Shown piece after piece: positions 17,915 through 23,991 of a DNA stretch of 64,000 nt. Under the pieces are notes generated by a model that worked only from the letters and a program-made list of their open reading frames with translations, did no database searches and was not told the origin of the DNA. The DNA is from Candidatus Latescibacterota bacterium (GTDB lineage: Bacteria > Latescibacterota > UBA2968): contig OZ240241.1 of assembly GCA_965198115.1 (NCBI GenBank), forward strand, positions 4,096,001 to 4,160,000. The letters run 5' to 3'. Position 1 is the first letter of the stretch; each line of letters opens with the position of its first letter. The position numbers and the translations under genes are program-made.

Positions 17915-19726
17915 ATGAACGAATTGGAAACCACATTTAAGTCGGCCCAGAGAGGATGCATCGAGGCTTACGGCACGCTTGTCGAGCGCTACCAGGATAT
18001 GGCCGTGGGATACGCCTACAGCATCCTCAGGGACTTCCACCTGGCGCAGGACGCGGCACAGGAAGCGTTCATCGAGGCTTTTCCAACGTTGGAAAGAGTT
18101 CACTCACTGGCGGCTTTTCCCAGCTGGATGCGGCGGATCGTCTTCAAACACTGCGACCGTCTGACCCGGAAGGATCGGCGATTCACCTTCCTGTCGGCCG
18201 AAGAAGCGTTGGCACTTCCCGCACGGGAGCCGCTCCCCGACCGGGTTCTGGAGGATCGTGAGATGCACAGCCTGCTGAACGATGCGGTTTCCGACCTGCC
18301 GGAGGGGGAGCGCGAAGTCGTCACGATGTATTACATCTCGGACCAATCACAGAATGACATCGCGACATTTCTGGATGTGCCTGTTTCGACGGTGAAGAAC
18401 AGGCTGAGAAGCGCGCGAACTCGAATGAGAGAGAGGCTGCTTGATATGGTTGAGGACAACTTGAAAGCGAATCGGCCGTCGAAAGACGCGGAATTCGTGA
18501 ACGGCGTGCTGAAGATCGTCGCGCCGGTGAAGGAGAAAGACAGTGACGCGATTTACCGGAGACTGGAGGAAAAGGGCCGTGCAGATATGGCGCGCCAGGC
18601 CCGAAATGGGCGTATCGCGGAGAGTCACTTCGACTGGAAGACCTCCCGTGTCGGGATGGTGGACGGGAAGATCGCGACCCACGTCGGCGTGTATGAACTG
18701 AACTTCCAGATCGGAGATGCGGTCGTCCGTGCGGCCGGCATCAACTGGCTGGACGTGAACAAAGAGACAGCAGACGAAGGGAAGCTGCAGGAGACCATCG
18801 GAGCCGCCGTAGAAGCGATGGAAGCGAATGGCTACGACATCGCCGTGACGAGATCGGAGCGACCGGAATGGCTCGCGCCGCACGGGTTCGTCTACGGGAT
18901 GCCCGTTCAACAATGTTACTACGTTAACGTGGAGGATCTGCCGACTGAGCCGCCTGACGTGATACTCGAGCGGGTTCACGCAAACGAGATCGCGAGTCGC
19001 AAGGACCTCGCGGAGATTTACAACCACGATCACAAGGGTCTGACGGGGTGTTCGATTCGTCCTACTTACCACCGCGGCAAGTGCCCGCCACCCGACGACA
19101 AGGACTTTCCCGCCTACATCTTCAAGGATGATCGTGGGAAGGTCGTCGGCTACCTGTATGACGGACCGTTTCGGGACAAAGAGATGTTCACGTTTTCGGA
19201 TGCTGCCGGTGACCCGGAACAGATTCTTCGAGTGCTTGCGCAGAAGGTGAGGGAGTTCGAGATCGATCGTGTACGGTTCATCAAAATGCCCTATCGCAGC
19301 CCGCTGGCGAAGCGGATCAGGCAGGGCGACTACATTCTCGAGGTCAAGAAGGTTGACAATGATGGGCGCAGCGCGTCGCAGATCAGGCTGATCAACCTTC
19401 GCTCTACCCTGGAGAAGATCGCGCCGGTGCTAGGCGGACGGTTGGCTGCGTCGACGTTGTCAGGATGGGAAGGTACGGTTTCGATCGAAGCCGATGGCCA
19501 GGCTGCGTCACTCGCGATCGGAGGAGCGAAGGTCGATGTGTCGGACGCAGTCGATTCCGATCACTCCGTGCGCGGAGGACAGGAGGTCGCGCAGTTGCTG
19601 ATCAGCACCGAGGTTCCGGACGAGGTCTGCGAAGCCGGTGGCATCACCCTCGCAGGGGATGCGGGCAAGCTGATCGAGGTGCTTTTTCCCGAACAACGCG
19701 GCCAGATGCCCAACGAGGATCTGTAG
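17915..19726 (+). CDS. ECF sigma factor fused to an Eis-like GNAT/SCP2 C-terminal region
   Basis: Sigma2 (LVERYQDM..AQDAAQEAF..WMRRIV) and sigma4 (LPEGEREVV..IATFLDVPVSTVKNRLRSAR), then about 410 aa with Eis-like segments (DGKIATHVGV..IGDAVVRAAGI; RLINL..EVLFP). Confidence 0.8.
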   Translation: MNELETTFKSAQRGCIEAYGTLVERYQDMAVGYAYSILRDFHLAQDAAQEAFIEAFPTLERVHSLAAFPSWMRRIVFKHCDRLTRKDRRFTFLSAEEALALPAREPLPDRVLEDREMHSLLNDAVSDLPEGEREVVTMYYISDQSQNDIATFLDVPVSTVKNRLRSARTRMRERLLDMVEDNLKANRPSKDAEFVNGVLKIVAPVKEKDSDAIYRRLEEKGRADMARQARNGRIAESHFDWKTSRVGMVDGKIATHVGVYELNFQIGDAVVRAAGINWLDVNKETADEGKLQETIGAAVEAMEANGYDIAVTRSERPEWLAPHGFVYGMPVQQCYYVNVEDLPTEPPDVILERVHANEIASRKDLAEIYNHDHKGLTGCSIRPTYHRGKCPPPDDKDFPAYIFKDDRGKVVGYLYDGPFRDKEMFTFSDAAGDPEQILRVLAQKVREFEIDRVRFIKMPYRSPLAKRIRQGDYILEVKKVDNDGRSASQIRLINLRSTLEKIAPVLGGRLAASTLSGWEGTVSIEADGQAASLAIGGAKVDVSDAVDSDHSVRGGQEVAQLLISTEVPDEVCEAGGITLAGDAGKLIEVLFPEQRGQMPNEDL

Positions 19727-19756: not shown

Positions 19757-19786
19757 GGTAGGGACGCTTCGCGAAGCGTCCCTACC
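19757..19786. repeat. Perfect 30-bp palindrome with GTAG/CTAC motifs (REP-like; possible terminator role)
   Basis: GGTAGGGACGCTTCGCGAAGCGTCCCTACC is its own reverse complement and lies between convergent genes. Confidence 0.85.
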
Positions 19787-19971: not shown

Positions 19972-20841
19972 CTATGCCATCTTCAACATCTCCGGCGTGA
20001 TCGTGTCTCCGTCGCACGCGCTGACCGCATCCGCTACGACGTCGGCGAGCTCTGCGCAGTTCCGAGGCCAGGCGTACGCTTTGAGATGATCCAGGGCGGC
20101 TTCGCTGAGGGCGGGAGCCGGGCCGTCGCTGTCCTTGGTACGCGACCGGATGAAGTGATTCGCAATTTCGGACAAGTCTTCGAGACGGTCCCTGAGCGTC
20201 GGACTGAGAATCGAGTTTTTCGCGAGCATCTCGTATAAATCCGATCTGAATCGGCCCTGATCGACGGCATCCTGGAGGCTGTGATGACAGATGCCGACAA
20301 TACGAACATCCGATCGCAGGATGGTCGCGCCACCCATCCGTGAGAACCGCCCGTTGACGCAATAGGCGGCCAGCTTCTGCTGGATGTTCGGTGAGAGCCT
20401 GTCGATAGCCTCGATGCAGACCGTGCCCCGCTTTGCCAGTCTGAGCAGACCCGACACCGGCGATGAACGGCCGCCTGCGGGATCCGCCTCGACGCCGAAC
20501 AGTTCCGTTTCGATCGTTGCATCCGTTGCACTCGCATCGAGGAACAGAATAGGCTGGTCGGCACGAGGACCGTTGAAGTGGACGGCCTTCGTGATCAGCA
20601 TTTTACCCGTCCCGGGTTCCCCCTCAACCAGCACGTGATCGTCGATCCTCGCCACTTCCTCGATGCGTCGGAGCAGCGCCTGATTCAGCTCACTCTCACC
20701 CACGATGCTCGTCGTGATTTTGGCTTTCCCGTCACCTGCAGGCGAGGACGACCGGAGAGCATCGAGCATTTCCTCTGCTTCCTCTTCGCTGACCGTTCCG
20801 GCCGCGAGGAGCGATAGAACTTTCCGTTCTGCTGCATCCAT
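19972..20841 (-). CDS. SHOCT-like domain fused to a degenerate sigma54-interaction AAA+ domain (no GAFTGA, no HTH)
   Basis: N-terminus ERKVLSLLAAGTVSEEEAEEMLDAL; Walker A GEPGTGK; ETELFG, GRFRSDLY, LRDRLED and YAWPRN motifs; AAGGAGG RBS. Confidence 0.85.
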   Translation of the reverse strand: MDAAERKVLSLLAAGTVSEEEAEEMLDALRSSSPAGDGKAKITTSIVGESELNQALLRRIEEVARIDDHVLVEGEPGTGKMLITKAVHFNGPRADQPILFLDASATDATIETELFGVEADPAGGRSSPVSGLLRLAKRGTVCIEAIDRLSPNIQQKLAAYCVNGRFSRMGGATILRSDVRIVGICHHSLQDAVDQGRFRSDLYEMLAKNSILSPTLRDRLEDLSEIANHFIRSRTKDSDGPAPALSEAALDHLKAYAWPRNCAELADVVADAVSACDGDTITPEMLKMA

Positions 20842-20864
20842 TGTTACCTCCTTGATCGACGTTA

Positions 20865-21227
20865 TCAGCCGGGTCTCCGAAGTTGAGCGATCGCATCGCG
20901 TGCGGTCAGCTCTCCATCCACAACCGCGTCCAGAATGCTCAGCTGGGACTCGCGTTCGTTCCGAGATGGGTTACCCAACGCCTGGTTCACCTCCTCCAGG
21001 CGTTTTCGAACGGTGGGGTAGGAGATCCCCAGATCCCGCTCGACTTCCCGGATGTTGCCTCGGGCGCCGATGAATGCGAGGATGAACCGCTGCTGCTCGT
21101 CGGAGAGCAGACCGAGCAGAGAGGTTCGAAATTCGCCCTCGATCGTGGCCGAACAATCGTGACACCCGAGTTTGACCGGACGAAGCCGTCCTCCGCAGAT
21201 CGGACAGGCTGTGAGTGAGTGATTCAT
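20865..21227 (-). CDS. DUF2089 family protein (Zn ribbon + HTH + SHOCT-like tail)
   Basis: CPICGG..CHDC and GNIREVERDLGISYPTVRKRL motifs; tail ILDAVVDGELTARDAI; GGGAGGA RBS before ATG 21227. Confidence 0.92.
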   Translation of the reverse strand: MNHSLTACPICGGRLRPVKLGCHDCSATIEGEFRTSLLGLLSDEQQRFILAFIGARGNIREVERDLGISYPTVRKRLEEVNQALGNPSRNERESQLSILDAVVDGELTARDAIAQLRRPG

Positions 21228-21260
21228 GGTCCTCCCCATTCCAGACCCACCGAAGTATTC

Positions 21261-21355
21261 GATTTAATTTGAAATTATTAATTAATAATATTTAATATAT
21301 CAATTTATACAAGAAAAATAGTTTCAAAAATGAATTATTACTATCCTGTTTATAA
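21261..21355 (-). promoter_or_regulatory. AT-rich promoter/operator region of the DUF2089 operon
   Basis: Almost entirely A/T; perfect palindrome ATTATTAATTAATAAT at 21274-21289; TTGTAT-N16-TATTAT on the minus strand. Confidence 0.55.
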
Positions 21356-21390
21356 AAAGTGCCCACCCTCGCCTGTTCGAGAGTGGGCTT
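21354..21390 (-). terminator. Intrinsic terminator (minus strand)
   Basis: GCCCACCCTCG-loop-CGAGAGTGGGC stem with a T-run on the minus strand. Confidence 0.7.
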
Positions 21391-21397
21391 CAGTTAG

Positions 21398-22967
21398 CCT
21401 GAATTATGCATAAAAAAGGTAGTCTCCTTGTACAAGTGTTTGTTTTTCCCTACATTAGGGCTGACACATCAAAACAACACTTGGAAGGAACTACCGTGAT
21501 AGAACCTAGTCAGATCCGGTTACCATTCGCAAGCATTTCGGGCAAGGTAGTTGAGGCTGATTTTGCCGGTGGCGCCGTCAGGAGTGACGGTGGAGTTCTG
21601 TTGCTTCGCGCCCTTGAGTCTCAGATGGGATTGATCGCCAGAATGGTAGATGCTTTGCGAGATCGTCGTCACCCAAGCTATATCGATCACACGCTTTTGG
21701 ATCTTGTGAAGCAGCGTGTTTTTCAGATCGCTTGCGGCTATGAAGATGCCGTCGATTGTGATGATTTGCGCCACGATCCGGGCGTCAAGGCTGCCTGCGA
21801 TCGGCTTCCTCTTTCCGGTCCTGATCTCGGGAGCCAATCAACGATGACACGACTTGAGAATGATGTGCGACGCTCGGATTTGTATCGGCTCGCACGGGCT
21901 TTTGTAGACGGGTTCATCGCATCGTATGACCAGGCACCCCCAAGCATCATTCTCGATATCGACGACACGGATGACCCAACGCACGGTGCGCAACAATTTT
22001 CACTCTTCAACGCGTATTACAATGAACACTGCTATATGCCGCTACATATCTATGAAGGCCAAAGCGGCAAGCTCATTACGACGATCTTGAGACCCGGGCA
22101 TCCGACGAACGGTAAACAGGTCGTTTCTATTCTCAAGCGCTTGGTGGAACACCTACGCGGATCTTGGCCAAACGTGGAGATCATCGTTCGCGCAGACTCA
22201 AAGTTCAGCTCACCAGAGATGCACGATTTCTGCGAAGACAACGGTATCTACTACGTTCTGGGCCAGGGCGCCAACTCCAGGCTCAAAGCGGCTGGACAAA
22301 ACCTGATGGACCAAGCGCTACGTCTGAGCGAGCATAAGGAGACGATTCGCTTGTTCTCATCCTTCTCATATCAGGCTGGCACCTACCGGCAGCCTCGCCG
22401 GATCATTCACAAGGCTGAAGTCACAAACGGCGAAGCAAATCCAAGATACCGCGTGACCAATTTACAGAGTAATCGAGACGGCTTTATCTATGATCGTATC
22501 CGATCGAACATCGTGCCACAAGTTTGAAGCCAACCAGTTCCGACTCTTTCTACACAGTGCTGCATACGCCTTGCTTCACGCACTCCGATCACAGGGACTC
22601 AAGGGCACCGCGTGGACCAAACCTCAGGTCAACACGATACAGAACCGTTTCCTCAAAATCGGCGCGAGAGTCATTGAAAGCGCACGAAGAATCCGATTCC
22701 ATTTTCCAACATCGTATCCACTCAAAAACGTCTTGGTGTCAATCATCACCAGGCTCGAAACGAACACGCAGTAACAACGCCGATCTATACCGGGGACAGC
22801 TATGTACACGTCGCAAAACAACACCTGTTCCGGACGAAAATCGTGACTCTTGCGACTCGTAGAGACCGCTTACGGGACCTTGGACATCCGAAGAAGCCGA
22901 GAACAAATCCTGTGCGTGATCACATCACTCCAAAACAACCTAAACTCAAATTCATGCATGATTCAGG
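21398..22967 (+). mobile_element. IS1380 family insertion sequence (defective)
   Basis: Terminal inverted repeats CCTGAATTATGCAT / ATGCATGATTCAGG (1 mismatch); flanks TTAG and CTAG; lower GC than its surroundings. Confidence 0.9.
21496..22774 (+). pseudogene. IS1380 family transposase with internal deletion and frameshift near 22500
   Basis: SDGGVLLL, GYEDAVD, LDIDDTDDPTHGAQQ, VRADS and, in another frame, DRTSCHKFEANQFRL. The RG-x-x-EN-x-IKE segment expected between them is absent. Confidence 0.9.
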
Positions 22968-23991
22968 CTAGGGGCGAGGCGACGGCCGCGAAGTGGTTCA
23001 TCGTGACGCCCATCGACAGTGTCGGCTTGAGATCTTCGTCAGGCGCGATTTTGTGCAGATAAGTCGTCAGCGCGATCCCTCCGAAGAAGATCATGTTGTC
23101 GATGCAGTAGAGGACGTAGAGGATGGGGCGACTGTCGATCGTGCCGTAGCCAAAAAAAACGAAGGCCAAAACCACATAGCTGAAACTCAGCATCTTCCGC
23201 TCACCGTATCGGTCCACCAGACGTCCCATCCAGGTCGCCGTCAGGGTGATCAGAAGCTGATTCACGAACACGAGCTTCATCGTCGTCGCGACCGGCATGC
23301 CGTGGACCTTCACGAGGGCAAAAATCGCGAACGTAATGAACATCTGTTTTCTCAATCCCTGAAGAAAGTTCAGGGCATAGTAAAGACCGTAGCGCCGCTT
23401 CAGAACGAAGCTCTTCTCGACCTCCGGCTTGCTTCTGCTGGTGAACAGAATGGCGACGCCACCGAGGATCGTGGCGATCCCTGCGAACAGAAACAGCCCC
23501 CCGTAGCCGATCAGATCGTAGGTCAGGTTACACGTGACGATCGTTGCCAGCCACGCCAGACTGTGGACTGATCGCAGCTGACCGAGCCAGTTTCCCTTGG
23601 TGCCCTCGGGAGAGAACAACAGCGACATGGACTGCTCCAGAGGGAGCCAGCAATGAAAGCCGATACTCCAGACCACGGAGTAGAGGGCGAGCGTTGCGAC
23701 CGACGTCACCCCCGCGTAGGCAATGATTCCGGCTCCCATAATCGCGAGTGAGAGGGCCGCGACGACCGGTGGCGCAAAACGGATCATCACCGCCAGAAAC
23801 AGCACATTCAAGAACCCGGGAACCTCGCGCAGTGCCTCAACCCATCCCAGCTCGTGCGGTTCGATACCGAGTCGATCTACGATGAAGTTGTAAAACAGCG
23901 ACATCTGCACACCGAAGAAAATGCCTTGCGAAGCCACTGCCGCTGCGAGAAGCCGAAAGTCCCGGTTCCATTGTGTGATCGAGAGTTTCAC
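22963..23991 (-). pseudogene. MFS transporter truncated at the C-terminus by IS1380
   Basis: Multi-TM protein (LREVPG, GRLVDRYGER) that ends at NHFAAVASPLA* with the stop inside the IS inverted repeat. Confidence 0.8.

Follow-up and report, generated by a model that had tools for sequence, protein, structure and literature searches.

A conserved DUF2089 gene pair with a SHOCT-tagged, sigma54-type AAA+ partner that lacks motor and sigma54-contact residues in Candidatus Latescibacterota

The stretch of Candidatus Latescibacterota DNA analysed here (the window, 64,000 nucleotides) carries on its minus strand a two-gene cassette, in which a DUF2089 gene precedes a gene for a sigma54-type AAA+ protein with an N-terminal SHOCT-like hairpin. 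The place and strand of this unit were as given in a preliminary description of the same DNA; both open reading frames are uninterrupted and separated by 23 nt, and the ribosome-binding site reported ahead of the second gene was recovered. We took the ATG at 21227 as the start of the DUF2089 gene (an alternative ATG lies at 21239). The main features are as follows.

20865 to 21227, minus strand: DUF2089 gene (120 aa; PF22747, PF09862), zinc ribbon, GerE-like HTH and a SHOCT-like hairpin at the C-terminus
19972 to 20841, minus strand: gene for the SHOCT-like and sigma54-type AAA+ protein (289 aa), without HTH
20846 to 20853, minus strand: ribosome-binding site AAGGAGGT of the AAA+ gene, 4 nt 5' of the ATG
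21361 to 21388, minus strand: terminator-like hairpin, predicted from sequence, which would insulate the cassette upstream

Contig pieces from a second sample were identical to the window over the loop, Walker B and arginine-finger codons (26 of 30 bins were covered, the sensor II codon lying outside). Since they show no differences wherever they cover, an assembly error is unlikely; a further sequencing run used in the comparison may be the source of the present assembly.

An IS1380-type element (PF13701) occupies 21395 to 22970; its inverted ends are 20 nt long, and the genome contains dozens of nearly identical copies. In this copy, as in about six others, approximately 57 nt found in many copies are missing, which splits the transposase ORF. 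The element cuts an MFS transporter gene (22963 to 23991, minus strand; 342 aa, versus frames of 402-444 aa in three relatives). Convergent with the cassette is a gene (17915 to 19726, plus strand) whose product joins an ECF sigma factor to a long GNAT-like region at the C-terminus; a perfect 30-nt palindrome (19757 to 19786) lies 3' of it. Among the genes flanking the cassette we found none that is conserved, membrane genes included; they are common to close relatives only. Another genome of the same genus (G070) has neither the cassette nor synteny.

In Pfam searches, the 120-aa protein matched DUF2089-HTH at E 1e-21 and, at E 3e-9, the zinc ribbon of DUF2089. Its structure model has two C-terminal helices; by fold it matched GerE, VpsT and sigma region 4 weakly (none at E≤0.001). 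The 289-aa protein matched Sigma54_activat (E 9e-32) and AAA_lid_14 (E 6e-14) but not HTH_8, the chain stopping after the lid. None of the NCBIfam models reached its cut-off. The AlphaFold model of the AAA+ protein (pLDDT 94, 52 sequences) comprises a hairpin of helices joined by a flexible linker to a complete AAA+ fold of bacterial enhancer-binding proteins (bEBPs), with NtrC1, FlrC, LuxO, NifA and PspF as the best fold matches. Similar SHOCT-like helix pairs had been proposed at the end of DUF2089 and at the start of its partner. Profile-profile comparison of the two termini supported the resemblance (hhalign probability 95.6), though the match of the 289-aa protein to the SHOCT-like family PF22746 stays below the cut-off (18.7 vs 27 bits); in the homologues L130, P0260 and P0263 the cut-off is exceeded.

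Alignment of the AAA+ protein placed the key residues at the following positions, the hairpin being located by PF22746, hhalign and the model.

20746 to 20841, minus strand: N-terminal SHOCT-like helical hairpin, aa 1-32 (PF22746 sub-threshold; helices 3-13 and 19-32 in the model)
20602 to 20622, minus strand: intact Walker A, GEPGTGK, aa 74-80; the next, normally acidic residue is M81
20467 to 20484, minus strand: L1 loop, DPAGGR replacing GAFTGA, aa 120-125
20407 to 20412, minus strand: Walker B, EA replacing DE, aa 144-145
20227 to 20229, minus strand: M205, replacing the trans-acting arginine finger (PspF R168 / NtrC1 R299; role as given in the available text of PMC7175178)
20053 to 20055, minus strand: A263, replacing the sensor II arginine

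According to the same source, GAFTGA contacts sigma54, and the Walker B Glu and the arginine finger drive hydrolysis (PMC7175178). Alignment to NifA, ZraR and NtrC1, together with Pfam, agreed with the preliminary description in every motif: an intact Walker A, DPAGGR, EA, DLYEML and WPRNCAEL, and no HTH. Within the Walker A pattern GxxGxGK[ED] the Lys is kept and the acidic position is Met; the switch Asn is missing as well. The clade 6 AAA+ fold (Sigma54_activat plus lid) is present, and GAFTGA, the Walker B DE, the arginine finger and the sensor II Arg are absent. Judged from its sequence, the AAA+ protein has lost the motor and sigma54-contact residues.

A single-sequence search with the AAA+ protein returned two full-length relatives (69% and 41% identity). 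DUF2089 itself matched in 108 of the 168 genomes of the phylum. Of the 30 best DUF2089 loci, the top 8 carry a SHOCT-AAA gene next to DUF2089, two of them broken (L007 and L008), and most of the others have SHOCT-Toastrack-like partners. Employing a profile of the N-terminal 120 residues of SHOCT-AAA proteins, we found matches at E≤1e-30 in 7 of the 168 genomes, six of which had contributed to the profile; all seven lie beside a DUF2089 match. A metagenome scan with a DUF2089 motif gave 42 loci, 25 of them with an AAA gene next, and profile searches added 12 further family proteins. SHOCT plus Sigma54_activat beside DUF2089, for which a search had been suggested, is thus a conserved pair. SHOCT-led members numbered 19 among the best 150 matches in 1.84 billion representatives, indicating that the family is small; in a named genome collection scanned with the family alignment, ordinary bEBPs dominated and the 80 loci included no family member. 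One SHOCT-AAA paralogue is labelled Candidatus Latescibacteria in its database.

Several loci depart from the simple pair. Two tandem, diverged SHOCT-AAA paralogues follow one DUF2089 gene in L126/L148 and in L143, and at L130:2010-3260 the SHOCT-AAA protein carries a biotin-carrier domain (PF00364) as a C-terminal fusion. A small HTH-like gene lies directly 3' of the AAA gene in two separate lineages that have lost the loop (L006:2797-2982 and L119 from 2835); that of L006 encodes about 60 aa, with weak Xre-like/RWP-RK Pfam matches and no homologue in the window's genome. We rejected this gene as a general split-off DNA-binding domain, as it is absent from the other loci and from the window's genome. 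One broken cassette (L008, G066:C251:18320-22041) is situated, in one genome only, some 1.4 kb downstream of rpoN.

From 53 distinct family sequences, 9 partial ones were left out, and the 44 full-length sequences were compared with 44 canonical controls. The Walker A Lys (44/44 in both sets), the PLR Arg (44/44 family, 43/44 controls) and the lid Asn (44/44 in both) are retained. GAFTGA is present in 22 family members versus 41 controls; the Walker B Asp, the arginine finger and the sensor II Arg, all found in 44/44 controls, remain in 30, 20 and 22 members, respectively. The Walker B Glu (44/44 controls) is kept in 13 members and in none of the 22 that have lost the loop. All activator motifs persist in five of the 44 (L151, P0127, P0260, P0263 and P0290), four of which branch near the base. 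Length is 267-299 aa in 41 of the 44, an HTH occurs in one (L121, Fis type), L130 has the biotin-carrier tail and P0290 an unassigned one. Invariant across all 19 non-redundant loop-less members are the Walker A glycines, Thr and Lys, G48/S50, R217 and N261 (G74 in 18/19); apart from three modest cases, we found among them no new conserved residues that would mark a gained function.

In trees of the AAA+ core, 38 members lay on one side of a branch opposite 44 canonical bEBPs (SH-aLRT 92), and 44 members were separated from 12 canonical ones with branch support of 100/95. Apparently, the SHOCT-AAA family is monophyletic, as far as core alignments can tell. GAFTGA changes twice on the tree; as the test does not reject one loss only (p-AU 0.20), we do not claim several independent losses firmly. 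The Walker B, arginine-finger and sensor II residues change 4-8 times each. P0002, P0135 and P0278 share a long branch with the window protein, which is one of the most stripped members.

The preliminary description regarded the losses as selective and raised the question of whether the exact substitutions are conserved. They are not: the closest orthologue (69% identical) has DPANGQ, DS, DLYDIL and WPRNCREL, and the replacement residues vary from lineage to lineage, so that the signal is loss of function rather than a new motif. What stands of the claim is that the catalytic and sigma54-contact residues are gone while the nucleotide pocket is kept, and that dN/dS is about 0.11 in the loop-less sister clade. 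By the Nei-Gojobori method, dN/dS in that clade, which is not the window's own lineage, was 0.11-0.12 at dS 0.13-0.15 (three pairs). Three very close pairs that differ by few changes gave 0.19-0.31, and GAFTGA-bearing pairs, many of them near saturation, 0.10-0.36. On these alignments and rates, the window clade appears as a case of loss of function under continued purifying selection. Recent decay of the window copy, suspected in the event that homologues keep GAFTGA and an HTH, was rejected: half of the family does keep GAFTGA (22/44) and one member has an HTH, but the 69% orthologue shares the losses, 22 members are loop-less, and the window copy belongs to an old loop-less clade. Nor was GAFTGA lost because sigma54 was lost, since rpoN was found in all six cassette-bearing genomes tested. 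There are 18 other bEBP-like matches in the window's genome (29-35% identity to the AAA+ protein). A canonical bEBP gene at G000:C1:8153775-8154595 is apparently frameshifted into two pieces, and several further bEBP matches are partial.

Upstream of the DUF2089 gene we delimited a candidate operator and promoter.

21269 to 21281, no strand: proximal operator box (type TTGA-N5-TCAA) with one mismatch, which overlaps the predicted -10
21291 to 21303, no strand: distal operator box with one mismatch, spaced 22 bp from the proximal box, which overlaps the predicted -35
21274 to 21303, minus strand: sigma70-type promoter candidate TTGATA-18-AATAAT, 10/12 matches by consensus comparison

By eye, TTGA-N5-TCAA boxes 21-22 bp apart were recognised upstream of DUF2089 genes, the proximal box often on TTGACA; relatives have TTGACA-N17-TATAAT-like elements at the corresponding place. 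Scored on the same regions from which the motif had been derived, the tandem box beat dinucleotide shuffles (p≤0.05) in 15 of the 24 regions linked to AAA genes and in 12 of the 32 remaining DUF2089 regions. The window's tandem box has 2 mismatches of 16, and none of 200 shuffles reached its score. With a matrix built from 44 boxes without the window, 21269-21303 ranked first in the 8.4-Mb genome (24.6 vs 17.0 bits for the next match); the region 21261-21355, earlier proposed for EMSA, therefore holds a likely operator. The matrix scan detected no second strong operator in this genome and no target outside the cassette, and the genome's second DUF2089 gene scored near 0. Employing a fixed pattern, we found the cassette's own promoter to be the best genome match in three of five genomes (G000, G039 and G157); in G080 and G158 the cassette was not matched. 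The second-best tandem box (L166, G000:C1:4394488-4394522) has one weak half; a sigma70-family gene precedes it, and a short ORF without annotation follows. Three loci (L114, L122 and L153) have a DUF2089 of the AAA-linked type without SHOCT tail or SHOCT partner and keep the operator.

Because the boxes overlap the -35 and -10 of the sigma70-type candidate, they lie where a repressor would bind. DUF2089 is likely an autorepressor that acts through this candidate tandem operator, newly seen for DUF2089; binding of the protein to the DNA and the repression itself are deduced from the position and score of the boxes.

Contact between the two proteins through their SHOCT-like hairpins would agree with the resemblance of the hairpins and is indirectly suggested by two patterns. 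At 60 DUF2089 loci, SHOCT was found on both proteins in 56, on neither in 4 and on one alone in none, with profiles that had been trained on 44 of those 60 loci; of the four loci without SHOCT, three form one clade and the other has a borderline score. In 23 AAA pairs, the mean charge of SHOCT helix 1 is -2.9 (acidic) in DUF2089 and +2.6 (basic) in the AAA partner, compared to -0.2 and +0.7 in 21 other DUF2089 pairs, a contrast that stems from one clade. As each pattern rests largely on one clade, the joint loss and the charge contrast are not independent replication. One DUF2089-Toastrack fusion (P0394) with no detected SHOCT points indirectly in the same direction; most other long 'fusions' of this kind have garbled linkers, look like frameshift artefacts and were discarded. 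A weak search (8 longer matches) showed no DUF2089-AAA fusion. A mirror-tree correlation between DUF2089 and its partner (rho 0.77, 19 pairs) was set aside as a sign of contact, because it shows co-inheritance only. Against contact, a classical SHOCT showed no self-oligomerisation in the single published test (PMC3581485), and membrane anchoring has been predicted instead (PMC11237479).

We tentatively prefer, with not quite even confidence, the reading that DUF2089 is an autorepressor and the AAA+ protein a non-hydrolysing, nucleotide-binding co-regulator docked on it via the SHOCT hairpins. DUF2089 dimers would sit on both boxes, which are spaced by two helical turns, and repress the cassette; the AAA+ relic would dock through the paired hairpins and, by binding nucleotide without hydrolysis, shift the occupancy of DUF2089 and tune repression. 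Nucleotide binding is presumed from the residues of the AAA+ protein. Evidence against this reading comes from the AAA-linked regions, in which the operator is significant in 15 of 24, from G080 and G158, and from the two broken copies among the 8 in the phylum. As neither a second strong operator nor a conserved gene in the flanks was detected, no output of the loop can be seen, and the lack of a target beyond the cassette leaves room for two other explanations, both of which we consider unlikely and to a similar degree. In one, DUF2089 sets the amount of the AAA+ protein, which enters or blocks true enhancer-binding hexamers and damps sigma54-dependent transcription. The AAA+ protein is the only visible product of the cassette, its fold is complete in the model, rpoN and many other bEBP-like genes coexist with it, and two lineages have tandem paralogues, as hetero-oligomers would have; on the other hand, it has no genomic link to any single canonical bEBP, is merely 29-35% identical to those of its genome and has lost both the trans-acting arginine finger and the Walker A acidic residue. 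In the other, the SHOCT tag alone matters, the AAA+ domain is an inert folded scaffold and the cassette is slowly being lost. This would fit substitutions that differ in every lineage, the repeated changes of Walker B, arginine finger and sensor II and the patchy spread (7/168) with broken copies, but not the fixed nucleotide-pocket residues of the non-redundant loop-less members, the uniform length of 41/44 members or a dN/dS in the loop-less clade that is not above that of GAFTGA-bearing pairs.

Less probable still is that both hairpins anchor to the inner membrane as a sensing dyad, in which the proteins need not touch. The sections of PMC11237479 on SHOCT-like domains do predict that these anchor other domains at the inner leaflet of the inner membrane; the opposite hairpin charges and the joint SHOCT loss suit a pair better, and no conserved membrane gene is nearby. 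For the window copy, a working split sigma54 activator with DUF2089 as its DNA-binding head is very improbable. The five members that keep GAFTGA, DE, the arginine finger and sensor II without an HTH make it plausible for basal members, but the loss of these residues from the window protein contradicts it for this copy. The operator moreover overlaps a sigma70-type promoter; a -24/-12 sigma54 consensus was found in none of 28 cassette loci (within about 1.5 kb), a weak negative with about one chance match expected, and that no DUF2089-AAA fusion turned up is a further, weak point against it.

Under the preferred reading of an autorepressor with a docked AAA+ co-regulator, an ordinary enhancer-binding protein may have gained a SHOCT tag and taken the place of the usual Toastrack partner in a DUF2089 dyad. 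At first it would have worked as a sigma54 activator that lacked an HTH and was held by DUF2089, and the window clade would then have become a sigma54-independent pseudo-ATPase, VpsR- or NtrX-like but in two pieces. A broader idea, possible though rather doubtful, is that the SHOCT-like hairpins are a plug-and-socket code by which the DUF2089 head recruits any partner domain. If a sigma54 activator was captured in this way, basal members would form natural enhancer-binding proteins made of two chains, and the window clade would have a nucleotide sensor that does not hydrolyse, or an anti-activator; the family would record the whole path from motor to pseudo-enzyme.

Dyads of DUF2089 with a SHOCT-bearing partner have already been described (PMC11237479, available text). 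The window's cassette resembles them in its first gene (zinc ribbon, HTH and SHOCT-like), in gene order and in matching hairpins on both proteins, and the tandem box also precedes 12 of 32 other DUF2089 genes; it differs in that the partner domain is a bEBP AAA+ domain instead of Toastrack or membrane helices, so that the kind of partner that ties such dyads to envelope stress is absent. The text and supplement rows of PMC11237479 name no AAA+ partner or operator; its fuller tables may bear on novelty. CtcC (PMC7482065) and FleT (PMC7175178) are likewise bEBP AAA+ domains without a DNA-binding domain, but neither is described in the sections available with a SHOCT tag or a DUF2089 partner, and CtcC keeps the catalytic Glu and the sigma54 site and hydrolyses ATP (PMC7482065). 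Basal SHOCT-AAA members resemble these two proteins, whereas the window protein does not. VpsR, TyrR, HupR and NtrX, which work with sigma70, have lost GAFTGA like the window protein, and VpsR has an altered Walker B and no detected ATPase activity; in contrast to the cassette, where an HTH of another type resides on DUF2089, they have HTH and input domain within a single chain (PMC6158489, accessible text). PspF is also a bEBP without a classical input domain that is controlled by a neighbouring protein, PspA (in part from PMC11237479); however, it is catalytically intact and has a Fis HTH, and its partner is not a DNA-binding protein. Full-text literature searches for SHOCT with sigma54 gave no match, and those for DUF2089 with or without SHOCT gave, among the matches listed, no description of the DUF2089-SHOCT-AAA+ combination; in the literature so covered we found no functional study of DUF2089. 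The SHOCT-AAA+/DUF2089 architecture is real and conserved, and it is apparently undescribed.

DUF2089 is widespread in the phylum, and the candidate tandem operator offers a directly testable target for it. SHOCT-like domains may serve in oligomerisation, as a membrane anchor or in partner binding, and the oppositely charged pair is a simple test case. The family as a whole provides a natural gradation that starts with intact sigma54 activators lacking an HTH and ends with pseudo-ATPases.
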